From a virus (lineage: Duplodnaviria > Heunggongvirae > Uroviricota > Caudoviricetes): a stretch of DNA of 64,000 nt. Below the pieces are notes generated by a model, which was not told where the DNA came from, did no database searches, and worked only from the letters and a program-made list of their open reading frames with translations. The DNA lies in IMG/VR virus record IMGVR_UViG_3300037466_002980, positions 64,001-128,000 of that record; one strand, written 5' to 3'. Positions 1 through 46,713 of the stretch are shown here, in pieces. Positions within the stretch are counted from its first letter, which is position 1, and every line of letters begins with the position of its first letter. The position numbers and the translations under genes were made by a program.

Positions 1-162
1 AGTGAAAAAAGTTAATATAAAATATAATCCAATAATAATGAAACTTATCTTGGATACATCAGCTACCCACATAATTGAAAAGATGCCTCTGTGTTGCAGA
101 ATAATCTGAAAAATCACAGAAACACAAGTTAATAACCACCATCTAAGCATTGCATAATTCAT
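1..162 (-). CDS. Partial membrane protein running off the left edge, possibly MotA/TolQ/ExbB-like
   Basis: Not in the ORF track. Manual translation MNYAMLRWWLLTCVSVIFQIILQHRGIFSIMWVADVSKISFIIIGLYFILTFFT shows two hydrophobic segments, with AAGGA upstream. Family call is from memory only. Confidence 0.5.
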   Translation of the reverse strand, partial: MNYAMLRWWLLTCVSVIFQIILQHRGIFSIMWVADVSKISFIIIGLYFILTFFT

Positions 163-175
163 TCTGTGTGTTCCT

Positions 176-526
176 TTATTGAAATTCTATTCTAGCCGGT
201 TTAAATATTGCATTAGGAAATACTCGTGTAGCTCTGTCTATAATTTCTTGTGGGAAATCAATAGAAGCATTATACTCATTGATAAGATCAATGAGTATTT
301 CTTTTTCCATTTCTAAATAAAAATCTTGAGGATTCCAGCCGCATTCCTCTAGTATATTTATTGTTTCAATATAAAAATGGATATCATCGAAAAAATCTTT
401 TCTTTGAACAACAGACGAACCTAATTTAAAAACCGGAGGTATTCCATTTTTACCACGACTTATTCTGTCCTTAACTTCTTGAACTGGTAATCTTCTTAGT
501 TTATCAAATGTTTTCTTTTCAGACAT
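176..526 (-). CDS. Hypothetical protein, related to the ORFs at 56498-56902
   Basis: 116-aa ORF sharing E-x-x-T-x-x-x-LRR-(x)-P and a later GW motif. Confidence 0.65.
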   Translation of the reverse strand: MSEKKTFDKLRRLPVQEVKDRISRGKNGIPPVFKLGSSVVQRKDFFDDIHFYIETINILEECGWNPQDFYLEMEKEILIDLINEYNASIDFPQEIIDRATRVFPNAIFKPARIEFQ

Positions 527-774
527 TATTTTAATCCAAAGTGATTATCCCGTTGCTTAATAAATTGAATTTCTTCTTCGGTTGCGAGTGGTAATGAATT
601 TTCAATTAACACTTCATTCAAGAATTCAAATTTATCAAATCCCGGACCTAATGTATTTTTTAATTTATCAGATATATTTAACCTGGTAGATTGGTTATCC
701 TCAATAACCATAACAGCCGGAAAAGGTTTATAGGTAGTTGAATCAACCATAATAGCTACATTAAATTTCCTCAT
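526..774 (-). CDS. Hypothetical protein
   Basis: 82-aa ORF with start/stop overlaps on both sides. Confidence 0.65.
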   Translation of the reverse strand: MRKFNVAIMVDSTTYKPFPAVMVIEDNQSTRLNISDKLKNTLGPGFDKFEFLNEVLIENSLPLATEEEIQFIKQRDNHFGLK

Positions 775-1265
775 GCTGTTTTCCTTTTCTTTTTCATTCT
801 AAGATATATATAATCTTCGTGTTGAATCCATTTAAAGGTATTAGGTTTCCATTTCTTATGTGTAAGAAATCCCCAATCCCTTTCTTGCGGACCGGGCATA
901 AAAAGTGTCCAACAATCGACCCCTGTTTCCAATTCGATTCTATGATAACTTTCAGCCTTACAGGTTCTAAAATGTCCTGCACCGCGCCAAACTTTTGTTT
1001 CACCTTTAGAAAAATCCATTGGATCGTTTAATCTCCATTCCCAATACCCACCCTTTAGTACCAGTGTTGCATATGGCCATGGATGATCGTGTTCATCGTC
1101 GGGGTCGCTTCTTAAAAATTGATGTAAGAAAATATTAAATGGAAATTTTTGTCTATCCTTAAGAAAAAGGTAATATCTATTTAGATAGGGAGATTGACTC
1201 TCCCTATCTAAAATTACTCTTTTCCTTCCCATCTTTTCCAATAGAGTTAGAAAGAGTCCGAACAT
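771..1265 (-). CDS. Cupin-fold protein
   Basis: HDHPW...LKGGYWE and YHRIEL...WTLF cupin metal-binding motifs. Confidence 0.7.
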   Translation of the reverse strand: MFGLFLTLLEKMGRKRVILDRESQSPYLNRYYLFLKDRQKFPFNIFLHQFLRSDPDDEHDHPWPYATLVLKGGYWEWRLNDPMDFSKGETKVWRGAGHFRTCKAESYHRIELETGVDCWTLFMPGPQERDWGFLTHKKWKPNTFKWIQHEDYIYLRMKKKRKTA

Positions 1266-1266
1266 A

Positions 1267-1950
1267 TTATTCCTTTCCTATCGAGACAAGTCTCATAAAT
1301 TCTGTTCTGACATTATTATCTGTTTTGAATACTCCACCTAATTTACTAGTGATAGTGGATGAACCCGTGTCTTCAACTCCACGAGATTTGACACAGAAAT
1401 GCTGAGCATGAATTAGAACTGCAATATTATCGGTTTCAAGAATATATTGAAGAGCGTGATAAATCTGTTCTGTCAAACGTTCTTGAATTTGTGGTCTCTT
1501 ACTAAAATATTCAACTATTCTATTGATTTTACTAAGTCCAAGAACCTTCTTATTTGGAATATAGGCAACAGTAGCTAATCCATCAATTACAACAAAATGA
1601 TGTTCACAATTGGATTGAACACTTACATTTCGTTCAATTACCATTTCATCATAACTCATTTTATTATCAACTGCGGTACATTTTGGAAATGCTTCATAGT
1701 CAAGTCCCCACATTGTCTCGTTTACCAGCATTTTGGCATATCTCTTTGGTGTTTCGATTAGACTATCATCGGATAAATCTAATCCAAGACATTCCATAAT
1801 TTCTTTAAATTTATCTTCGATAACTGAGATCTTTTCCTTTCGATCTCCATTTACCATTTCTGTAGTCGGTGTTTCGACTCCACATTTAAGTAAATGTTGG
1901 TGAATTTTTTGACCTAATTCGGGGTCACATTTTGTTTTATTATATGCCAT
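1267..1950 (-). CDS. folE: GTP cyclohydrolase I
   Basis: ETPKR, SNCEHHF, GLSKINRIV, RPQIQERLT and HFCVKSRGV motifs. Confidence 0.97.
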   Translation of the reverse strand: MAYNKTKCDPELGQKIHQHLLKCGVETPTTEMVNGDRKEKISVIEDKFKEIMECLGLDLSDDSLIETPKRYAKMLVNETMWGLDYEAFPKCTAVDNKMSYDEMVIERNVSVQSNCEHHFVVIDGLATVAYIPNKKVLGLSKINRIVEYFSKRPQIQERLTEQIYHALQYILETDNIAVLIHAQHFCVKSRGVEDTGSSTITSKLGGVFKTDNNVRTEFMRLVSIGKE

Positions 1951-2023
1951 AATTTGAATCCTTCCTTAAACGGATATTGTTAATTGAAATTTGTCACCGT
2001 TGTGTGACATTTTTATTTATCCT

Positions 2024-2353
2024 TTAAAATACACCATACCGTGATTTAAGATTCTGAAATTCATATGTATAAGCAGTATCAAATGGTTTATTCATAACCT
2101 TTAACATTGTTGTCATATCACCACGTAATAGCATCAGTTCCGATTTTAAAGAAGTTATCTCAATTGATTGACTATTGATTATCTCGACCATTTGTCGAAT
2201 TATACCAATATCACCATTTAAGGAACCTTTTAACTTCCCTACAATTTCTTCTTTTTCAATAAGATCTTTAAGAAATTCATTATCTACCAGATGTAATAGT
2301 TTATCTAATAGCTCTAAGGTTTCTTTATCTTTTTCGGTTATATACATTAACAT
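2024..2353 (-). CDS. Hypothetical coiled-coil protein
   Basis: 109-aa ORF coupled to the thyA stop. Confidence 0.65.
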   Translation of the reverse strand: MLMYITEKDKETLELLDKLLHLVDNEFLKDLIEKEEIVGKLKGSLNGDIGIIRQMVEIINSQSIEITSLKSELMLLRGDMTTMLKVMNKPFDTAYTYEFQNLKSRYGVF

Positions 2354-3237
2354 TAAATTGCCATCCCTGGTTTGTTTGTAACATCGGGATACGGATCGTA
2401 TCCAATTAATTCAATATCTTCCCATTGTAATTCTAAAATGCTTTCAAATGTGGGAAGATCCTTCTTAATAACAACATTAGGTAATTTTCTCGGAGTTCTT
2501 GTTAGAATTTCATCTACCATTTTCATTTGATTTTGATAGATGTGAGCGTCCCATCCCATATAAACTAGATCACCGGGAATCAATCCTAAATGTTTTGAAA
2601 AGATGTGATTTAGTAATGCATATGATGCGATATTAAATGGTAATCCAAAAGGAACATCATTACTTCTCATTACAAAGCAATTATTTAATCTACCACCTTC
2701 AACAGTGAAGTCTCCTTCAACAGAATAAAGATGCATCATATGGCAAGGAGGTAATGCTGCTTCGTTAAGCTGACCGGGATTCCAATGAGTAATAACATGC
2801 CTTCGACCATAAGGATCATTTTTCAGACCATCGACTAAATTCTTCAGTTGATCTGTTTCTTTAACGATTATGGAACCCTTATCCAGTTTGGGAGTTTCCC
2901 AATGTCGAATCTGATAACCATATCCCTTTCCCATATCGCCTTCGGGAAGATGAATTAATCCTCGGTTATTTAAAAATTCTCTTGTTGTATTACCTTTCCA
3001 GATATTAATTTTTTTGTCTTCTAATATCTTGGTATTTGTCAATCCACGAAGAAAAAACATTGTTTCTTCGAACGCTATTCTTAATGGAACTTTTCTGGTT
3101 GTTTGTAATGGAAATCCTTCTGATAGATTCCACCTTAATAATCTTCCAAAAACAGACCTAGATCCAACCCCGGTTCTGTCCGGTTTATCAACACCATTTT
3201 CTTTGATGTCACGAAGCAAAGTTAATAAATTCTCCAT
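2353..3237 (-). CDS. thyA: Thymidylate synthase
   Basis: DRTGVG, catalytic ALPPCH, RSND.PFGLPFNIASY and DAHIY motifs. Confidence 0.97.
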   Translation of the reverse strand: MENLLTLLRDIKENGVDKPDRTGVGSRSVFGRLLRWNLSEGFPLQTTRKVPLRIAFEETMFFLRGLTNTKILEDKKINIWKGNTTREFLNNRGLIHLPEGDMGKGYGYQIRHWETPKLDKGSIIVKETDQLKNLVDGLKNDPYGRRHVITHWNPGQLNEAALPPCHMMHLYSVEGDFTVEGGRLNNCFVMRSNDVPFGLPFNIASYALLNHIFSKHLGLIPGDLVYMGWDAHIYQNQMKMVDEILTRTPRKLPNVVIKKDLPTFESILELQWEDIELIGYDPYPDVTNKPGMAI

Positions 3238-3253
3238 TGATACCTCTTTGTTG

Positions 3254-3282
3254 ATTATATTGAATAGTTATGTTTTCGTCAA
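3254..3282 (-). promoter_or_regulatory. sigma70-like promoter for thyA
   Basis: TTGACG-17 nt-TATAAT on the minus strand. Confidence 0.8.
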
Positions 3283-3313
3283 TGAACTTCATAACAATTC
3301 CGATACGAATGGT

Positions 3314-3342: not shown

Positions 3343-4269
3343 ATGCCGAACTTATTAGACGAATATATCAATTTATTTGAAGAAAACGAGATTCCCGGAA
3401 TCGGTGATACTATTCGTACGAAGAAAATGCAAATGGATGGTGTTGTTGAAAAAATAAGAAAAAATCCAGTTGGCTATACTGAAGTATTATTCAGAACACC
3501 AGATGGAAGATTAATGAAAACTCCGGCTTCAAATATTATTCAAATCCAGAAATTAGAAGACGGATCGATGGGCGGAATTAATAGAAGTCATCCAGCACAA
3601 GATGTAAGTTATGAAAAAGTTCTAGATGAATATGAAGAATATCTTCGAGAAGAAGATGGAGAATATACCTTCCAGACCGCGAAAGGTAGCATTTATGTAG
3701 TTCATGCAAATCATACCACTACCAGGACAAAAGCGAAAAGACCCGAACATGGAGAAGATCATGGATTAATGCCAACATCGGATCTTACCTTTTATGTTAC
3801 ATATAATAATGTTTTAAGGCTAAGTGAAATTCAAACACGTAGTCCGTATGAAAGAAGAATTTTAGTAGCAGGTAATCAGGCTGCGGTACAATATCTTACG
3901 GGACCAAATACCGGAAAATGTGAAAGAAGAACATTAGCTGATATTCAATTCGAACCTGCTGTAGATCTTTATCCTGTAGAATTATGGAACGATGGAGAAG
4001 TTCTCCATTTTGGAAATAAAATTGTTAATATAGATAAAGATATAAATGAAGGATTTCTTTCTAATCTATTCGGCATTACAGAAAAAGATATAACACCGGG
4101 TTCAATTTTTTATTTAAGAAAACTAAGTAAAAAATATTATATCACCGAAATAACTGATCGTTGGGTTTTCTATAAAGATGGACTTCATGATACAACCACT
4201 GGTCGCGGAAAGAGTATGGCTGCCATGCTTCGTATTTTAAACTCTTCTGATGCTGAAAAATTAAATTAA
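3343..4269 (+). CDS. Hypothetical multi-module protein, candidate internal head protein
   Basis: 308-aa ORF with AAGGA RBS and late motif; acidic N-terminus MPNLLDEYINLFEE. Confidence 0.65.
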   Translation: MPNLLDEYINLFEENEIPGIGDTIRTKKMQMDGVVEKIRKNPVGYTEVLFRTPDGRLMKTPASNIIQIQKLEDGSMGGINRSHPAQDVSYEKVLDEYEEYLREEDGEYTFQTAKGSIYVVHANHTTTRTKAKRPEHGEDHGLMPTSDLTFYVTYNNVLRLSEIQTRSPYERRILVAGNQAAVQYLTGPNTGKCERRTLADIQFEPAVDLYPVELWNDGEVLHFGNKIVNIDKDINEGFLSNLFGITEKDITPGSIFYLRKLSKKYYITEITDRWVFYKDGLHDTTTGRGKSMAAMLRILNSSDAEKLN

Positions 4270-5726
4270 AATTTAATTTCTTCGCCACTTTCGTTAATAA
4301 TCTCAACCGGAAATCCCCAGAGATTTTCAATATGTCTTACAACCTTTAAAGATTTTTCAGATAAACGTCTATTGTTCTTCTGATGATACATTAATGTAAG
4401 TTTTCTGGTGTTGTAATCAACATTAACTACTTCAATTTTCGGAATATGATTTTCAATCAAATAAGAATCTGCAAGAGATCTCCTGATCGTTTTATATCCA
4501 TTTTCGTTGTGAATAGCATTAACCGTATAATCCGATGAATTATCATCTTTTAATAGGAAAAGCTTCAACTTACGGCAAAGTGTTGGACTAAGATATTGTC
4601 TAATTAAACTTTCATCTCTATAGTTAGCAACAGCATCTAAACAGGCATCAACCCAATTTGCTCCAATTAATTCCGGAAAGAATTCTTCATCCTCAGCCGT
4701 TGGTTCGGTACATATTCTTTTAATTTCAGAAAAAATTTCAAATCCAAGATAATATGGATTTAATCCCGAATACCATTCGCTATTGAAATCTGGTTGATAA
4801 AGAACCGAAGTATGCAATTGATAAAATTCAAGCATAGATCCATCTTCCAAATATCCTTTATCCCATAACCTATTAACCAGATAGTAATGAGTGAAACTTG
4901 CCCAACCTTCATTGAGTACTTTTGTGGCACGTTGTGGTTCGAAATATTGTGAAATTTTTCTAACAATGCGAAGTAATTCTCGCTGCCATAGCTCTAATTT
5001 AGGTGATTTCTTTTCAAGAAAATATAATAGATTTTCTTCGGGTTCTTTAAGAAATTTATTATCTTCTTTTGGTTTTTCTTTCTGTTTAGGTAATGTCTTC
5101 CAGAGTTCATTAACCTGTTCTTGCAAATATATTTCTCTGGCTTGTTTTCTTTCTTGTTCTTTAGCAAAACTTAACTTAGGTGGACGAATTGATCTGTCTA
5201 CTCCGTGATTCATTAATGCATGTGCTGAATCCAATGTTTGTTCCACTGCCTGTAATCCATATTTTTCTTCACATTCGGAAATAAAACCTTTAGAGAAATT
5301 TAGATAATCAACAATACTGGCTGCATCCGTCCATTGTTTAAATAGGTAATTATTCTTAAAGACATGATTATGTCCAAAAGCAGCATGAGCAAGTACCAAT
5401 ACCTGCGTCATTGCTGAATTTTCTTCCATTAAAAAGTTAATACAAGGATTGGTATTCAGAACGATTTCATATGCCAATCCTCGTTTTCCTTGCCTATACA
5501 TATCGGACTCATATGAAAATTTCTTACCAAAACTCCAGTGCTTATACATTACAGGAAGCCCAACACTTGCATAGGAATCCAACATCTGTTCGCTGGTAAT
5601 TATTTCTATCTGGTTGGGATAGAGATCAAGTTTTAATTCAGGAGCAAGATCATTCAACACATCCATGGCACGTTTAATCAGATCAAAATCCCATTCAGCA
5701 CCCTTAAATAATGGTTTATTTGCCAT
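4266..5726 (-). CDS. spoVR: SpoVR/YcgB family protein
   Basis: YPNQIEII, GLPVMYKHWSFGK, GLAYEIV, AHAAFGHNHVFKNN, NEGWASF and NPYYLGF motifs. Confidence 0.93.
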   Translation of the reverse strand: MANKPLFKGAEWDFDLIKRAMDVLNDLAPELKLDLYPNQIEIITSEQMLDSYASVGLPVMYKHWSFGKKFSYESDMYRQGKRGLAYEIVLNTNPCINFLMEENSAMTQVLVLAHAAFGHNHVFKNNYLFKQWTDAASIVDYLNFSKGFISECEEKYGLQAVEQTLDSAHALMNHGVDRSIRPPKLSFAKEQERKQAREIYLQEQVNELWKTLPKQKEKPKEDNKFLKEPEENLLYFLEKKSPKLELWQRELLRIVRKISQYFEPQRATKVLNEGWASFTHYYLVNRLWDKGYLEDGSMLEFYQLHTSVLYQPDFNSEWYSGLNPYYLGFEIFSEIKRICTEPTAEDEEFFPELIGANWVDACLDAVANYRDESLIRQYLSPTLCRKLKLFLLKDDNSSDYTVNAIHNENGYKTIRRSLADSYLIENHIPKIEVVNVDYNTRKLTLMYHQKNNRRLSEKSLKVVRHIENLWGFPVEIINESGEEIKF

Positions 5727-7005
5727 TTTTCACCTGTTTTGTAAATACCTTCCTAAATATTGATACGACATCATCAACAGAACCAATATTAACAATTGCT
5801 AAGTTATCAAAATTAGCTGTCATTTGCTTCATAGTTGTAAAAACATTTGTCTGATATGATCTTTCTAAATTCATGTATTCAGAAGTCCCGCCAGGTTTCA
5901 CTTCATTATAAACATAATATTGGCACTTAGGTAATATTTCTTCTAATTCTGATTTTAAATCATTTTCATCATTGCTAAAATTATCACCATCGGATGCCTG
6001 CACTACATAAATATTCCAATCATCCAATGGATATTCTTCATTGATAATTTCATTAACTTTCTTAACTCCGGTACTAACCATTGTTCCACCAGATTCTTTA
6101 TCATAGAAAAATTGATGTTCAGTGCATTCATCAGCAGTCGTAGTATGACGAACAAATCTTATATCCACCTTCTCATATTTTCTCTGTAGAAATAGATATA
6201 ATAACAAAAAGAATCTTTTAGCTATTTCCTTTTCTCTTTCTTCCATACTGCCCGAAACATCCATTAAACAAAAAACAACAGCCTGACTCGAAGGTAATGG
6301 AATTTGAGTATATCTTTTATACTTAACATCAACTTGATCAATATATGAAACAGCATTTCTTCTTGTTTTTAATTCAAGTAATTCTTGCTGTAATTGAATT
6401 AATAATTCGGAGTCAATACATTTCTCAATCTCTTCTTCTTTCTCTTTTATTTTTCTATCAAGTGGGAAGGCTAATGCAATTCTTCTACCTAAAGCATTTT
6501 TTAAGCTTCTTTCTAAATCAAGATTATTTGGTGTACCAGAAGTTGAAAACCCAGATCTCTTCCTTGCGAAGCGTATAGCAGTTTCTTCGCTTTCCTTGAT
6601 TAAATCTGGAAGTTCAAGATCTTCAAAAAGAATGTCTAAATATTCTTCTTTAGAAATAGTAAAGACAAATGTATCTTCACCATCTCCGTTATCACTAGCA
6701 TCTTTTCCTTTTCCTTGTCCAGATTTTTCTCTCTTAATAGTATCTCCCACCACAAAATCTCTATTTCCTGGTAAGACTCTATCCCAATCTCCCGATTGGT
6801 AATCATAATCAAAAACTGGTTCGGAAATTCCATCTGTAGAGATGGTGATAGATTCATCCTCTTCGGATGTGATGTCTCTATCAATTGCTCTTTTTCTTAT
6901 CTTTTCCTTTATCCAATCGTTTGCCCTTTTTAGGAAACGTTGCCTATTAGACAGATTTTTTCCTTTCGGATTCAATCGTCTATCAATAATGGTATAATTA
7001 TCCAT
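5716..7005 (-). CDS. yeaH: YeaH/YhbH (DUF444) vWA-domain protein
   Basis: IIDRRLNPKGKNLSNRQRF N-terminus, LFEDLELP, MIDAS DVSGSM, SGGT and ASDGDN. Confidence 0.93.
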   Translation of the reverse strand: MDNYTIIDRRLNPKGKNLSNRQRFLKRANDWIKEKIRKRAIDRDITSEEDESITISTDGISEPVFDYDYQSGDWDRVLPGNRDFVVGDTIKREKSGQGKGKDASDNGDGEDTFVFTISKEEYLDILFEDLELPDLIKESEETAIRFARKRSGFSTSGTPNNLDLERSLKNALGRRIALAFPLDRKIKEKEEEIEKCIDSELLIQLQQELLELKTRRNAVSYIDQVDVKYKRYTQIPLPSSQAVVFCLMDVSGSMEEREKEIAKRFFLLLYLFLQRKYEKVDIRFVRHTTTADECTEHQFFYDKESGGTMVSTGVKKVNEIINEEYPLDDWNIYVVQASDGDNFSNDENDLKSELEEILPKCQYYVYNEVKPGGTSEYMNLERSYQTNVFTTMKQMTANFDNLAIVNIGSVDDVVSIFRKVFTKQVKNGK

Positions 7006-8945
7006 TAAGAGCTCTTGGCCACCCTAATATGCCATTCAACCAGGCGTTTAACCTGTTTAGCAGTATATCCCTTACTCATCATTCTGTGAACAAATTCGTC
7101 GTGTTTCTTTTGATCGTCACTGTTTGATTTAGCACCAAAACTAATAACTGGCAATAATTCTTCCGTACTAGCAAACATCTTCTTTTCAATTACTTCACGT
7201 AAATTTTCATACGAAGTCCATTTTACAGGATTGCCACCATTTTTTGCCCTTGCTCGAAGTACAAAATTAACAACCTCATTACGAAAATCTTTAGGATTTG
7301 AAATACCTGCAGGTTTTTCAATCTTTTCAAGTTCTTTATTTAAAACATTTCTATCAAAAAGATTTCCTGTGTCAGGATCTTTGAAGTCAATTTCTTGTAT
7401 CCATGCATCAGCATATTCGATATATCTATCAAATAAATTCTGTCCATAATCACTATAACTTTCAAGATAAGCCTTTTGAATTTCACTACTTAATTGATCA
7501 GCATATCTTGGTGCTAAATGTTCTTTAATGAAATTAATATATTTTCCTTCTTTCTCTTCGCCAAATTGTTCTTGTTTAATTGCATCTTCAAGAACATACA
7601 TTAAATGTACCGGATCGGCCGCAACTTCAGATGGATCGAAATTAAATGTCTTAGATAATATCTTGAATGCAAAACGTGTGCTAATTCCACTCATTCCTTC
7701 GTCGACACCGGCATTGTCCTTATATTCCTGAAGTCCTTTTGCTCTTGGATCAGTATCCTTAATCGCTTCTCCATCATATACTCGCATCTTACTGTATATA
7801 TTAGAGTTTTCGTGATCTGAGATTCTGGTTAATACACAAAATTTAGCCAAAATATCCAATGTTTCTGCTGCGCACGGTGCTTGACTAAGGCTCGAACTTT
7901 CGAGCATTTTAACATAAATATTTTTCTCGTCTGTAACACGCAAACAATATGGAACTTTTACAACATAAACTCTATCAATAAAAGCTTCATTATTCTTATT
8001 ATTCTTAAATGTTTGCCATTCACTCTCGTTACTATGTGCTAAAACAACACCATTAAACGGGATTGCACTAATGCCTTCTGTTCCGACATAATTGCTTTCT
8101 TGTGTTGCAGTTAATAATGGATGTAACATTTTAATTGGTGCCTTGAACATTTCTACAAATTCAACCAGGCCCTGATTTCCACGGCATAGTGCTCCAGAGA
8201 ATGAATAGCTATCTGGATCATTCTGGTCGAAATGTTCTAACATTCTAATATTTGTTTTTCCAACTAGGTTACTAATATCCTGGTTATTATCATCACCCGG
8301 TTCGGTCTTGATAACACCGATTTGTTCTAATTTATTTGGAAATACTTTTACGACCTTAAATAAAGTCTTATCGTGTCCATATTCTTTCAATCTCTTGATT
8401 GCCCATGGACTAAGAACATTATTTAAATATCGTTGTGGAATGCCATATTCCTTTTCAATAAGATCACCATATTGTTCCTTATTGAAAAGACCTAATGGAG
8501 ATTCAAAGACCGGACTCATATTTCCGTCTTTGTCTGCTAGTACATAAATGGGAAATTTCTGAATTAGTTCCTTGAGGCGCTCTGCTAAGGAGCTCTTTCC
8601 GCCGCCTACTGGACCAAGGAGATAGAGAATCTGTTTACGTTCTTCTAATCCTTGTGCAGCATGTGTAAAATATCCAACAATTCTTTCAATTGATTCTTCC
8701 ATTCCAAAAAAATCACTGAAAGCTGGATACCTTTTTATTGTTCTATTTAAAAAGATCCGACTTAGGCGTGGATCTCTATGTGTATCTATTAATTCCGGTT
8801 CACCGATTGCTTTAAGAATTCTTTCAGCTGCGGTGGCATACATTGTATTATCTGATTTGCATCCTTCAAGGTATTCCTTTAAAGAAATAGTCTCCTGACG
8901 AAATGCGATTTTCTCATCAGATAATAATTTGAACAACTTAGACAT
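7005..8945 (-). CDS. prkA: PrkA/YeaG AAA+ ATPase / serine protein kinase
   Basis: Walker A GPVGGGKSS, EPGDDNNQDIS, Walker B GLVEFVEMFK, HPLLTATQE and GISTRF. Confidence 0.95.
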   Translation of the reverse strand: MSKLFKLLSDEKIAFRQETISLKEYLEGCKSDNTMYATAAERILKAIGEPELIDTHRDPRLSRIFLNRTIKRYPAFSDFFGMEESIERIVGYFTHAAQGLEERKQILYLLGPVGGGKSSLAERLKELIQKFPIYVLADKDGNMSPVFESPLGLFNKEQYGDLIEKEYGIPQRYLNNVLSPWAIKRLKEYGHDKTLFKVVKVFPNKLEQIGVIKTEPGDDNNQDISNLVGKTNIRMLEHFDQNDPDSYSFSGALCRGNQGLVEFVEMFKAPIKMLHPLLTATQESNYVGTEGISAIPFNGVVLAHSNESEWQTFKNNKNNEAFIDRVYVVKVPYCLRVTDEKNIYVKMLESSSLSQAPCAAETLDILAKFCVLTRISDHENSNIYSKMRVYDGEAIKDTDPRAKGLQEYKDNAGVDEGMSGISTRFAFKILSKTFNFDPSEVAADPVHLMYVLEDAIKQEQFGEEKEGKYINFIKEHLAPRYADQLSSEIQKAYLESYSDYGQNLFDRYIEYADAWIQEIDFKDPDTGNLFDRNVLNKELEKIEKPAGISNPKDFRNEVVNFVLRARAKNGGNPVKWTSYENLREVIEKKMFASTEELLPVISFGAKSNSDDQKKHDEFVHRMMSKGYTAKQVKRLVEWHIRVAKSS

Positions 8946-8974
8946 TTAACCTACCTTTATCTAATTTGAGGTTG

Positions 8975-9020
8975 ATAAAAATACACCCTAGATGGAAATT
9001 ACCATCTTAGTGTATTTATC
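8975..9020 (-). promoter_or_regulatory. Late-promoter-like GATAAATA (9013-9020) embedded in an inverted repeat / terminator-like hairpin upstream of prkA
   Basis: Minus strand reads GATAAATACACTAAGATGG-TAATTT-CCATCTAGGGTGTATTTTT. Confidence 0.6.
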
Positions 9021-9054
9021 TATACCCTTTTAATTATATAAAGGATCTGGATTC

Positions 9055-10161
9055 TTATCTATTTGAAGTATAATAGAGTTTGAAACTTTCTGTATTTAGA
9101 AAATCAGTTAGAGAGATATCAGTATGATTAACTATGCCTTTAATTTTTCCAGATAGGAAAAGTTCTAATACAGCAACTCCGCCACCAGCCGTGGTAGATT
9201 GGATAGAAGTAAAATTTTCTGCTCCATAGAATTTTCTAGAGAAAGTATTTCTTACCTTCTTGCCTTTCTTGGTTCCCATTGCTACGCCAAAGACAACAAT
9301 AACGTCTTGTCTAGTATAAGGAAACACCTTTAAGAATTCAGCCTTAATTCGGTCGAAATCTCCGTGATTTCTTTCCACGGCATCTGCAACATAATCATAA
9401 TGTGTAGGATATCTTAAAGTCTTATAGGAAACATTTGGAACTGATTTTAAATCCTTAATCAGGGATCCAATGCCACCGGATGTAAATGCGGCTTCATATT
9501 CACATCCGTCGATAATGACTTTTTCTCTTCCTGTTAAGGCAGGAATATCATAGAGTCTGCCATCCTTCTTAATTCTACAATCACGGATATATTCATTAAC
9601 AAGTCCATCAACACTCCAAGAAAGGCTATATAGATCTTGCGGACGAGTGCCGTTTACATTTTTCGGAAGAGCACCAACAGATACCATAAGACTATCAGCA
9701 GTATCTAAATCCTTTACTAGGTTATATCCTACATAATTGATAAATCCTGGAGCAAGTCCGCATTTAACGGCACAATTCAATTCGGGATGATCCTTGTAGA
9801 TATCCTGAACTTTATCTGCCATTACATCGTCTTCAGTAAAATCAATATAGGAACAATTTGCATCTGCTGCGGCAATAGCAACCTTTTCGTTTAAGAAAAA
9901 CGGCAAAGCATTGATTACATAAGAAATTTCATACTGCCGGAAAATCTTTGATAATTCTTCCGAAGAGGAGTTTCCAATATCGAAAAGAATATGCGAAAAA
10001 TTCCCGGCAGCCTGAAGTGCTGAAAGATCAGAATCGATTAGGTAGCAACGAACATGGTTTAAGTCATTATTTTCGTCATAATCTTTGTATTTGAAATTTT
10101 CAATCATTTCGACTAATGCCGAACCAATTTGACCTGCACCAAGTATTGCTACCTTTCTCAT
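9055..10161 (-). CDS. Saccharopine dehydrogenase family oxidoreductase (lysine 6-dehydrogenase / carboxynorspermidine synthase-like)
   Basis: Rossmann GAGQIG, INALPF, CGLAPG, VGALP, WSVDGLVNEY and YKTLRYP. Confidence 0.85.
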   Translation of the reverse strand: MRKVAILGAGQIGSALVEMIENFKYKDYDENNDLNHVRCYLIDSDLSALQAAGNFSHILFDIGNSSSEELSKIFRQYEISYVINALPFFLNEKVAIAAADANCSYIDFTEDDVMADKVQDIYKDHPELNCAVKCGLAPGFINYVGYNLVKDLDTADSLMVSVGALPKNVNGTRPQDLYSLSWSVDGLVNEYIRDCRIKKDGRLYDIPALTGREKVIIDGCEYEAAFTSGGIGSLIKDLKSVPNVSYKTLRYPTHYDYVADAVERNHGDFDRIKAEFLKVFPYTRQDVIVVFGVAMGTKKGKKVRNTFSRKFYGAENFTSIQSTTAGGGVAVLELFLSGKIKGIVNHTDISLTDFLNTESFKLYYTSNR

Positions 10162-44148: not shown

Positions 44149-46713
44149 TTAAATCATGATCGGCATTGGTGCATCATATCCAATATCGTCATCAGTTGAA
44201 ATATTGCTATTGATGGCTGCATGCGAATCATTGTCCCAGGTTGAAATATAATCTGTCATTCTGATTGCTAAAATCATTGCCATAATTAAATCATCTGTAT
44301 GTCCGATTCTGGCTTCAAATGTATTAGCTCTGGAAACAAATACTTTCAATTCAGAAACAATAGGTTTTGAATTTAATGTTATCTTACCAGATTCTACAAG
44401 ATACTTTAATTTGGCACAGGCTTCTAGTTTAGATTTATTTGTTGTCACAAATCCAGAACGTCTTCCATTTCTACCTTGCAATCTATTTTTCGGATCATGA
44501 AGCATTGTTCCGGGAAAGTTTTCCTCTCCAGTGTCTCTAATAACAACCAATGCAGCTTCACCTAAGGAATTACTTTCAACTGACCAATAAATTTCAGGTT
44601 TTCCATTTAGATAAATTTCTTCTAAAATTTTCTTCATTGTTCTAACCTGTTCTTCAACTGGCGATTTGTTATTACTCCATTCGGCAACTTGCGTTAATGA
44701 TGGCAATTCTAAGACCTGAATTGCAGAATTGTCGCCACCTGTTCCCATTGAAGGGTCGAGAGAAACAACATAGATAGCATCTGACCTAATTGGTGCATAC
44801 CATCTAACCTGACCTGTTCGATGTATTGGATCGATTGGTTTAATTTGATTTAATTTAATTGGATTAATTAATGTTTCTTCGAATGTAATGAATTGACATT
44901 CGTGTTCTCTTAAGAATCTATCCTCACCAATAGAAGCCATTTCACTATCTGCCCATTCTTGATTTCTTTCCGGGTGAGCTTTCCATGTTGCGATATATGG
45001 TCTAAATCCATTAATTCCAATTTCAGTTTCATTTCCATGGTGATCAATCATCTTATTTGCATTAAACCAAATATCAGCAAACTGGTCTTCGTCTGTATTT
45101 GGTGTTGATGTAATAATACACTTACCACCTGTTGAAAGTGTTGGAGAAAGTGATGTCCAGAATGCCTTCGCAATATTCGGTTCTACGAATGCGAATTCGT
45201 CCAAATAAACAAGTGATAATGACATACCACGACCGGTATTTTCTGTAGTTGTGGTAGCTATAATTCTTGAACCATTATCAAAATCTAAGGAACGTTTATT
45301 ATATGTTCTAACACCAGCACGAATATGATCGGGAATAGATTCATAGGCATATCTAACCCTGTGCATAATTTCCTGTGCACCATCGTATTTGTTTGAAGCG
45401 ATTAATATTGTTGCATCTTCGTTAAACATTGCGTACCAAAGAAGATAACCTGCAGCAACGGTTGTATTATGAGTAGGAATAAGCGTTTTTCCACATAAAA
45501 ACAAATGGTCATTATTATCTACCTGTAGACAACGCACAGGAACCGAACTTATTTCTTTGATATTCCTAATATAAATTCTTCTATTTTTAGGATGATTCTT
45601 TAACCTTTTTTGTCTTTCTAGCTTCCTCGGGAGACAAAAAATCTTATGAAAACTTGTATCCACTGAAAATGCAAATTGATAATTATCTTTATGAGTTGTA
45701 GTGCGTTTCTTTGTTGTGCTCTTAATTCCTAAGGTAGATAACAACAATCTAAATTCCTCTGCCAACTTTTTATTAGACTGATAAAACCTACTTACTCCAG
45801 TCTTTTCACAGGTACCATCGGTATCCATTAACCCACGCAGTAGTTCTAATCTATTCTCAATGGAATTAAAAATAAAATGTTGAGGAATGTGTTTATTTCC
45901 CCAAGCACCAGTTTTCTTTAAATCAGTTACCAATCCATATGTTGTAAAATTTCCTGTTCTTTCTGATCTAGGATCTAATCTAAAATCGGAAACTCGATAT
46001 CCTGCCTTCTCAAATTTAGATCTATAAGTAGGATAATCATCAATGGTACAGGTAATTCTTCCATCTGAAGTACCTCCGTCTCCAAGCCAGACTCCAAATA
46101 CATATGGATCTACCGGTAATTCTATTTCATTGAATTCTAATGGTTTCGTATATTCAATAAAAACCGATTGTCCTTTTCTGTTAAACTTCTTAAAATTAGA
46201 AATTAATTCTTCTGTATTTGTTGTAATAGAACCCTTGTGTGGAACATTATATGTCCATAGGTGATCTTTATCTGCGGTAATCTTTTCACCGTGCATGAAT
46301 TCAATTTCATAACATTGATGATTATTCATAATATCGGTTATGTATGTAACCGATGTAGGTTTTCCATTAGGACCGAAGATCGTATCTCCTACCTTTATAT
46401 CACCCACTGTTGTAAATCCAGTAGGAGTAATAATATGTGTATCCAGGCTAAGAGCCTTGCCCATCTGACGGCCAATCATGTTAATTGATTTTCTATATTT
46501 GTGATAATTTTTAATTAAATCAAACTGAAAATCATATAATTGAATCTTTTCTCTTCCACGCAATGGATGCTGAATATACATAAAATTACGAATGAAATAT
46601 TCAGCCCCTGTGGCAGGATCCATGCAAGCTCTTAATTCATCAATTTGCTCTTTAGTGTACGAAACCTTTGTATAGGCTCGTTTAACGAGTTTATCATCTT
46701 GATATATTGCCAT
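44149..46713 (-). CDS. terL: Terminase large subunit (gp17-like), intein-containing
   Basis: Walker A GRQMGK|TT split by the intein, Walker B VYLDEFAF, ITSTPN, nuclease LDPSMG and HTDDLIMA. Confidence 0.95.
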   Translation of the reverse strand: MAIYQDDKLVKRAYTKVSYTKEQIDELRACMDPATGAEYFIRNFMYIQHPLRGREKIQLYDFQFDLIKNYHKYRKSINMIGRQMGKALSLDTHIITPTGFTTVGDIKVGDTIFGPNGKPTSVTYITDIMNNHQCYEIEFMHGEKITADKDHLWTYNVPHKGSITTNTEELISNFKKFNRKGQSVFIEYTKPLEFNEIELPVDPYVFGVWLGDGGTSDGRITCTIDDYPTYRSKFEKAGYRVSDFRLDPRSERTGNFTTYGLVTDLKKTGAWGNKHIPQHFIFNSIENRLELLRGLMDTDGTCEKTGVSRFYQSNKKLAEEFRLLLSTLGIKSTTKKRTTTHKDNYQFAFSVDTSFHKIFCLPRKLERQKRLKNHPKNRRIYIRNIKEISSVPVRCLQVDNNDHLFLCGKTLIPTHNTTVAAGYLLWYAMFNEDATILIASNKYDGAQEIMHRVRYAYESIPDHIRAGVRTYNKRSLDFDNGSRIIATTTTENTGRGMSLSLVYLDEFAFVEPNIAKAFWTSLSPTLSTGGKCIITSTPNTDEDQFADIWFNANKMIDHHGNETEIGINGFRPYIATWKAHPERNQEWADSEMASIGEDRFLREHECQFITFEETLINPIKLNQIKPIDPIHRTGQVRWYAPIRSDAIYVVSLDPSMGTGGDNSAIQVLELPSLTQVAEWSNNKSPVEEQVRTMKKILEEIYLNGKPEIYWSVESNSLGEAALVVIRDTGEENFPGTMLHDPKNRLQGRNGRRSGFVTTNKSKLEACAKLKYLVESGKITLNSKPIVSELKVFVSRANTFEARIGHTDDLIMAMILAIRMTDYISTWDNDSHAAINSNISTDDDIGYDAPMPIMI
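45466..46455 (-). mobile_element. 330-aa intein with LAGLIDADG homing endonuclease; Ala1, class-3 (WCT) type
   Basis: Starts ALSLDT; block B TADKDHLW; LAGLIDADG motifs GVWLGDG and LRGLMDTDG; block F VRCLQV; ends IPTHN|T. Confidence 0.92.

Follow-up and report, generated by a model that had tools for sequence, protein, structure and literature searches.

Does a giant phage that encodes homologues of the bacterial proteins PrkA (YeaG), YeaH (YhbH) and SpoVR (YcgB) own these three genes and, if so, when and for what would it use them? The question is raised by the window, by which we mean the whole stretch of 64,000 nucleotides analysed here, corresponding to bases 64001-128000 of the IMG/VR record IMGVR_UViG_3300037466_002980. 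The record is the 362,810 bp genome of a tailed phage (Caudoviricetes); it has a GC content of 36%, carries direct terminal repeats (DTR) and is rated 100% complete. The trio lies 68-73 kb from the start of the record, with phage genes on both sides. Since the record is DTR-complete, the composition and codon usage of the three genes are phage-like and the locus is syntenic in related phages, the trio is a genuine phage-owned cassette.

Analyses of the nucleotide composition indicated that the GC content of the three genes (0.32-0.35), their GC content at third codon positions (0.21-0.25) and their codon usage all fall inside the distribution of the genome. Four related IMG/VR loci (L004-L007) show the gene order NMNAT-NAMPT-(SacDH)-PrkA-YeaH-SpoVR...ThyA-FolE, where SacDH stands for a saccharopine-dehydrogenase-like gene, and their PrkA proteins are 84-86% identical to that of the window; over the related phage contigs this identity is 84-88%. 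Metagenomic PrkA proteins at 73-88% identity are numerous, and several of them are encoded on contigs of 340-400 kb. The bacterial comparison comprised the 80 best loci from a collection with one genome per prokaryote species and a random set of 201 Pseudomonadota genomes. The best bacterial PrkA in these two samples was 70% identical, and 44 of the 201 random genomes carried a PrkA, at 65-70% identity.

A phage contig into which host DNA had been mis-assembled, or one that ran into the flank of a prophage, could in principle show such a locus, and cases of this kind occur. The 30.8 kb record of Enterobacter phage LAU1 (MN688132.1, L003) begins with yeaG-yeaH in bases 1-3308, and its YeaG groups tightly with the enterobacterial-type bacterial sequences in the tree; the two genes are most likely the host flank of a prophage and not phage genes. 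For the trio of the window the probability of such an artefact is negligible: it stands between phage genes in a DTR-complete genome, its composition and codon usage are those of the phage, a phage-type promoter motif lies upstream, and the identity to bacterial PrkA reaches 70% at best as against 84-88% for the related phage contigs. Contamination or chimerism with host DNA, which a preliminary description of the window had named as an objection, was therefore ruled out by the terminal repeats, the composition, the synteny and the low bacterial identity.

The same description had claimed three intact, overlapping genes that keep their signature motifs, and this was borne out in full. All three are minus-strand open reading frames (ORFs; coordinates and overlaps are given in Table 1) with full-length matches to Pfam families. 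PrkA matched PF08298 (AAA_PrkA; 4e-167, 556 bits, profile positions 1-358 of 358) and, in its C-terminal part, PF06798 (5e-70, 237 bits, 1-255 of 255), YeaH matched PF04285 (DUF444; 1.6e-142, 476 bits, 2-418 of 418), and SpoVR matched PF04293 (2.8e-155, 517 bits) together with SpoVR_C, PF24755 (4e-13). We read the three genes as a conserved, translationally coupled operon. For each protein 34 viral and bacterial homologues were aligned. The PrkA alignment revealed that K117 of the Walker A motif (GPVGGGKS, residues 111-118) and E262 and E265 of the acidic Walker B segment are invariant. The same holds for residues D249, S251, S253, T308 and D339 of YeaH, whose metal-ion-dependent adhesion site (MIDAS) has the motif DVSGSM at residues 249-254, and for H114, H119, N272-E273-G274 and H280 of SpoVR, where the motifs AHAAFGHN and NEGW begin at residues 113 and 272. 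A distant solved homologue of PrkA is PDB entry 9xip (5.5e-49); a literature search for the paper behind this entry found nothing relevant. Families for the three proteins already exist in PHROGs (PrkA, phrog_22605; YeaH, phrog_19072; SpoVR, phrog_35217).

The order PrkA-YeaH-SpoVR was found in all 36 IMG/VR loci with PrkA, two short loci ending before SpoVR, and in 68 of the 80 best bacterial loci. Many of the trio-bearing IMG/VR loci have further genes in common with this genome, rIIA and a DnaB-like helicase for example, and the large terminase (TerL) proteins of the large trio contigs are 42-82% identical to that of the window. The same trio in the same order is also carried by Ralstonia phage RsoM2USA (ORF30-29-28 of MG752970) and by three uncultured megaphages of 630-640 kb (LR745206, LR756502 and LR756504), whose PrkA proteins are only 56-62% identical and branch apart from the viral clade of the window. 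In the RsoM2USA paper PrkA and SpoVR are listed separately by BLAST match and not as a module (PMC8504454). A distant, re-ordered trio occurs in Thermus phages of the phiYS40 group (phiYS40, TMA and YS40_Isch, genes 056-059), where a phage-borne set of PrkA, SpoVR and a YeaH-like protein has been annotated since 2006, with the names 'SpoVR' and 'serine kinase'. These phages belong to an unrelated lineage, their PrkA is only 27% identical, and the order is YeaH-like gene, SpoVR, an extra gene of 616 aa and PrkA. In YS40_Isch (L153, 51181-57307 of MK257744.1) the set adjoins a dNMP kinase gene and lies near the terminase; the YeaH-like product is annotated as 'conserved bacterial protein' and the 616-aa gene is unannotated.

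Phylogenetic trees, which were unrooted and whose bacterial sampling consisted of Pseudomonadota-like sequences, were constructed for the single proteins and for their concatenation. The PrkA, YeaH and SpoVR trees each separated viral from bacterial sequences, and the viral sub-clades were congruent among the three. The viral copies form a clade or clades of their own with longer branches than the cellular ones, especially in YeaH, which is 40-45% identical to cellular copies, and their composition is adapted to 36% GC. In the concatenated tree 21 non-redundant viral trios formed one clade (SH-aLRT 88; an inner group of 19 at 99), while RsoM2USA with a megaphage, and L037, were placed elsewhere. 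That all phage trios go back to one origin was rejected by the approximately unbiased test (p = 5e-5), a result that the long branches of RsoM2USA, L150 and L037 may inflate. The Thermus set, differing in order and lineage and with a PrkA of only 27% identity, is a separate acquisition. Because one viral clade is rejected and a Thermus phage type exists besides, the trees indicate that the trio was acquired by phages at least two to three times.

The dN/dS ratios of unsaturated viral pairs ranged from 0.02 to 0.11 in all three genes, which indicates strong purifying selection on the viral trio. Adjacent on one strand, overlapping, shared in the same order and congruent in their trees, the three genes form a module that is inherited together. 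A phage clade under purifying selection thus exists, although it does not hold all viral copies, and the fear that the proteins might be near-identical to host copies and free of selection is answered by a best bacterial identity of 70% and by these ratios.

The motif GATAAATA, which stands upstream of prkA, is present in the window in 21 copies where 8.1 would be expected, a number not attained in any of 100 shuffles. Seventeen of the 21 copies lie 0-67 nt upstream of an ORF on the same strand; of the 64 copies in the whole genome, 46 are followed by such an ORF at a distance of no more than 100 nt, a share that for one-letter variants of the motif is 0-26%. The genes behind it include the tail sheath, two tail-tube genes, the head-tail adaptor, several virion proteins, FolE and the plus-strand gene that converges with the trio, so the earlier claim that the trio and the virion genes share a motif was correct. 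In L004, L005 and L007 GATAAATA is found 35-57 nt upstream of prkA in otherwise diverged surroundings, and more distant lineages have TATAAATA or CTAAATA-like boxes at the same position. Enriched, oriented and close upstream of virion genes, GATAAATA has the properties of a TATAAATA-like -10 element and is a real regulatory motif.

The genome also encodes a late sigma factor of the gp55 family (L155:1369-2331(-); phrog_12791, 1e-79; phrog_234, 3e-21). Its gene lies outside the window (in locus L155, G000:C1:205133-208330), encodes 320 aa and adjoins a gp47/SbcD-like gene and a virion structural gene. The gp55 protein of T4 has 185 aa, and the gp47-like/gp55-like pair echoes the 47...55 neighbourhood of T4. 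Given the enrichment and placement of the motif, its conservation before prkA in three relatives and the gp55-type sigma factor, transcription of the trio most likely starts at a late promoter of the gp55 type, and the late control put forward in the preliminary description is a reasonable deduction from the sequence.

The same description had placed the motif inside a terminator-like hairpin that could insulate the operon, and this held only in part. The motif does lie in the 5' arm of a long imperfect hairpin (Table 1), and the 109-nt leader (8946-9054, minus strand) folds with a minimum free energy of -30.8 kcal/mol (z = -4.2). The U-run is located inside the 3' arm of the long stem. A consensus scan called no minus-strand terminator at the hairpin, and in the three nearest relatives, L004, L005 and L007, the fold of the leader is no more stable than that of shuffled sequences (z -0.9, -1.5 and +0.8). 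A conserved insulator, or a switch acting on the ribosome-binding site, is unsupported by a fold that these relatives do not conserve. Because of this, and because pairing of the Shine-Dalgarno sequence is still possible in the window's putative late transcript, neither an insulator nor a translational switch is claimed here.

Table 1. Positions of the trio, its signals and other features in the window
Feature	Position	Strand	Description
prkA/yeaG	7005..8945	-	AAA+ ATPase with PrkA C-terminal (pseudo-kinase-like) domain, 646 aa
yeaH/yhbH	5716..7005	-	DUF444 protein, vWA-type with MIDAS, 429 aa; start overlaps prkA stop by 1 nt
spoVR/ycgB	4266..5726	-	486 aa; overlaps yeaH by 11 nt
GATAAATA	9013..9020	-	Candidate T4-type late promoter -10 element for the trio; 67 nt upstream of PrkA ATG
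Long imperfect hairpin	8974..9020	-	5' arm holds the motif; inner 6-bp stem 8990-9007; within larger fold 8950-9050
Sigma70-like site TAGATA-17-TATAAT (10/12)	9033..9061	-	Possible earlier promoter; may be chance
Hairpin in convergent junction of spoVR and the plus-strand gene	4212..4230		Terminator-like for plus strand, weak for minus strand
Gene convergent with the trio	3343..4269	+	Weak PHROG 'endolysin' match
Saccharopine-dehydrogenase-like gene	9055..10161	-	Directly upstream of the trio
Large terminase gene	44149..46713	-	854 aa, with an insertion of ~330 aa (residues ~88-414)

To the question whether the trio belongs to the core of its phage clade the answer was negative. Three complete DTR genomes (G214, G215 and G216, of 369, 385 and 365 kb), whose TerL proteins are 78-82% identical to that of the window, contained no PrkA domain. 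At the same locus they carry NAMPT, the convergent plus-strand gene, small ORFs and ThyA, with neither the trio nor the saccharopine-dehydrogenase-like gene. In the TerL tree the genomes with and without the trio interleave; for instance, L215, which has it, is sister to L225, which lacks it, with a support of 97, and at least two changes are required. The trios of the window's group are monophyletic and found at one locus, and ancestral presence followed by repeated loss would be the simplest reading of the trees. The idea of a core gene of the clade was rejected, and because three complete close relatives are without it the trio is an accessory cassette. Among cultured phages, the relatives by TerL are jumbo phages of the RaK2-like (43-45% identity) and PA5oct-like (56%) groups, none of which is among the 17 phage records with PrkA.

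The genes around the trio encode the large and small subunits of ribonucleotide reductase (RNR), a metallophosphoesterase, NMNAT-Nudix, NAMPT, the saccharopine-dehydrogenase-like protein, ThyA and FolE. The adjacent genes are metabolic auxiliaries (NAD salvage, ThyA, RNR and FolE) and not a structural block; helicases, terminase, sheath, tube and rIIA are encoded farther along the genome. These findings bear on the suggestion, also made in the preliminary description, that the trio is a chaperone for virion assembly or protein quality, in which an AAA+/vWA pair of the MoxR-vWA kind would remodel or mature structural proteins late in infection. Chaperone-like behaviour is common among AAA+/vWA pairs, and the late-type promoter would suit such a role. 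We consider it very improbable, as the cassette lies among metabolic genes outside the structural blocks, three complete close relatives with the same virion genes do without it, the phage PrkA is 67-70% identical to a cellular PrkA that has no phage substrates, and the trio is present in unrelated phage types with different virions, such as the Thermus phages and the megaphages. Nothing was found in support of this role.

The NAMPT and NMNAT-Nudix genes, a pair that rebuilds NAD+, adjoin the trio, and its patchy accessory distribution is typical of conflict genes. Both features would agree with a part in counter-defence, the trio degrading host defence proteins or countering the dormancy of abortive infection alongside the NAD-salvage genes. 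Such a part is very improbable. The trio was not identified as a defence system by PADLOC, which gave no significant match (the sole hit was IetA, with an E value of 0.0077 over 30 residues), its extreme conservation and low dN/dS are unlike those of fast-evolving anti-defence genes, and relatives that lack the trio still have the NAD genes.

What the trio might do was approached from its cellular counterpart. The prkA(yeaG/spdA)-yhbH(yeaH)-spoVR(ycgB) module of cellular Pseudomonadota has the same families at full length, the same order, tight coupling and the same signature residues, and its PrkA copies are 65-70% identical to the phage protein. Most bacteria have the three genes in a single operon, while E. 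coli has yeaGH plus ycgB. In E. coli YeaG, renamed SpdA, is required for a starvation-induced and largely non-specific degradation of cytoplasmic proteins, which supplies amino acids and ATP for new protein synthesis (PNAS October 2026, PMC13684143). PrkA of B. subtilis binds and hydrolyses ATP and slowly degrades casein in vitro in an ATP-dependent manner (PMC9512850), and in six bacteria the genes yeaG, yeaH and ycgB show tight co-fitness (bioRxiv 10.1101/072470).

By analogy with these systems we give about even chances to a late, phage-driven turnover of host proteins that fuels virion synthesis. PrkA would act as an AAA+ unfoldase-type ATPase, YeaH as a vWA/MIDAS adaptor and SpoVR as a zincin-like metal-dependent partner, the three jointly forming a protein-turnover machine. 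The cellular module answers to RpoS/NtrC, whereas the phage copy resides in a lytic-type jumbo phage behind a late-type motif; expressed late from the phage's own genes, the trio would escape that host control and drive the bulk or selective degradation of host cytoplasmic proteins. The amino acids and energy released would go into making virions, for which a slow giant phage needs a great deal of both late in infection, in parallel with the breakdown of host DNA for nucleotides by phages. The metabolic neighbourhood fits this idea of turnover, as does the latent period of 270 min of RsoM2USA, a cultured trio carrier (PMC8504454).

The SpoVR part of this proposal was examined on an AlphaFold2 model (pLDDT 81, pTM 0.82). 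An exhaustive search with VIA-align returned, for residues ~8-390, Z scores of 13.6, 11.9 and 11.8 to DUF885 proteins (PDB 3o0y, 3u24 and 3iuk represent the zincin/DUF885 group) and of 8-10.7 to M1, M3, M32, M4 and M2 peptidases. Zincins, superposed over 170-200 residues, made up nearly all of the 50 best matches; helices dominate the model, however, and for folds of this class even unrelated proteins may score as high as Z ~13. EGW is invariant in the DUF885 alignment (A4) and recalls the NEGW of SpoVR, which, we presume, also recalls the 'NEGF/EGW' glutamate helix of M1 peptidases. The SpoVR motifs differ from those of zincins in that H114-A-A-F-G-H119 has no glutamate, and the two motifs are ~155 residues apart.

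Several results weigh against late protein turnover and against a peptidase-like SpoVR. YeaH and YcgB were outside the E. coli study, and YeaG itself was not demonstrated to be a protease (PMC13684143). Highly purified PrkA of B. anthracis, which its authors class among the clade-III AAA+ proteins and in which they see no protease residues, showed no proteolysis, and the weak activity of the B. subtilis protein may stem from a contaminant (PMC13001217). Should proteolysis be what the module brings about, a partner protein may therefore supply the hydrolytic activity. The sigma70-like site just upstream of the trio (Table 1) leaves earlier expression possible; such sites are no commoner in the region than in shuffles. 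The trio is dispensable, given the three complete close relatives without it. As regards SpoVR, a Foldseek search of the model against the PDB gave nothing significant (best E 0.17, the weak top matches being zincin peptidases), the HExxH zinc-binding and catalytic motif is absent, the sequence reading A-H-A-A-F-G-H-N-H with an invariant alanine after the first histidine, and hhalign of SpoVR against the DUF885 alignment gave a Prob of 0.2. A profile search of PDB sequences with SpoVR likewise found no sequence-level link to peptidases. Since HExxH is missing, the hhalign probability is 0.2 and the profile search was empty, SpoVR was not placed in the zincin family, and its resemblance to zincins in the predicted fold is a lead and not a classification. 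The earlier proposal that SpoVR may be a metal-binding effector agrees with this predicted fold. The most specific form of the turnover idea, that giant phages carry their own late 'starvation proteolysis' machine for an autophagy-like breakdown of the host proteome, with SpoVR as a zincin-derived hydrolytic or metal-binding subunit, is a tentative one, which we hold to be somewhat unlikely as it stands.

The phage might instead use the trio for a regulatory takeover, removing or modifying specific host regulators, as has been proposed for ScoC in Bacillus or for the RpoS and stringent-response networks, and so keeping a starving or dormant host productive or blocking its entry into dormancy. 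Descriptions of YeaG/PrkA as a kinase or regulator of the stress response go back a long time. Sporulation is influenced by PrkA through ScoC (PMC9512850), the phenotypes seen in the co-fitness data depend on the condition (bioRxiv 10.1101/072470), and such a function would fit phages of nutrient-poor environments. Kinase activity, on the other hand, was not detected in purified Bacillus PrkA, and the C-terminal P-loop is degenerate (PMC9512850, PMC13001217), while the E. coli phenotype is broad and non-specific (PMC13684143). A late promoter would be odd for a host takeover, which is usually early, and the T217/S219 control site of Bacillus PrkA corresponds to V and K in the phage when compared by eye in unaligned sequences. 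We regard regulatory takeover as rather unlikely, and the override of dormancy signalling that the preliminary description had put forward as one option as less likely than protein turnover in the light of the E. coli YeaG work.

Further observations concern the neighbours of the trio and other genes of these phages. The saccharopine-dehydrogenase-like gene is directly upstream of the trio also in L005 and L006, and in L012-L014, which belong to a different viral lineage, a 31%-identical gene lies ~3.6 kb upstream of prkA. Like the trio it is missing from the syntenic locus of the trio-less sister genomes, and it may be functionally linked to the trio via amino-acid or polyamine chemistry. The convergent plus-strand gene is preceded by GATAAATA in the window and in two of the three trio-less sister genomes (L233-L235); the gene and its syntenic counterparts range from 308 to ~609 aa, with conservation confined to a short block (residues ~70-93). 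The stretch between NAMPT and ThyA appears to be a hot spot that takes up variable cargo.

The insertion in the large terminase bears a LAGLIDADG homing-endonuclease domain (PF14528, 1e-10; Hom_end), and in about 50 close IMG/VR relatives TerL is uninterrupted, with a length of ~524-535 aa; the insertion looks like an intein. In the complete sister phage G214 (L234, G214:C1:154000-160500) the ThyA homology of ORF 784-2259 on the minus strand falls in two pieces (residues 1-114 and 128-294) within one frame of ~500 aa, which suggests an intein-like insertion in its thymidylate synthase.

Phage trios are already on record, in phage annotations since phiYS40 and as PHROGs families, and the trio of the window is a well-documented further example and no system of a new kind. 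The high novelty implied by the preliminary description was not sustained, and three complete close relatives do without the trio. The case contributes a DTR-complete jumbo phage that encodes a sigma factor of the gp55 type and has a late motif shared by relatives, together with a clean contrast of presence and absence among complete sisters.

The cellular yeaG-yeaH-ycgB module is among the most conserved of the poorly understood modules of bacteria. In phages the trio is kept by strong purifying selection, is freed from the host's stress control and would seem to be timed to coincide with the making of virions, which suggests that these phages recycle the host proteome much as they do host DNA. 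The cultured carrier RsoM2USA makes the idea directly testable, and the three complete sister genomes without the trio provide natural controls at the same locus. If phages do carry a late machine for starvation-type proteolysis, their trios would be a natural, deregulated version with which the bacterial system could be dissected.

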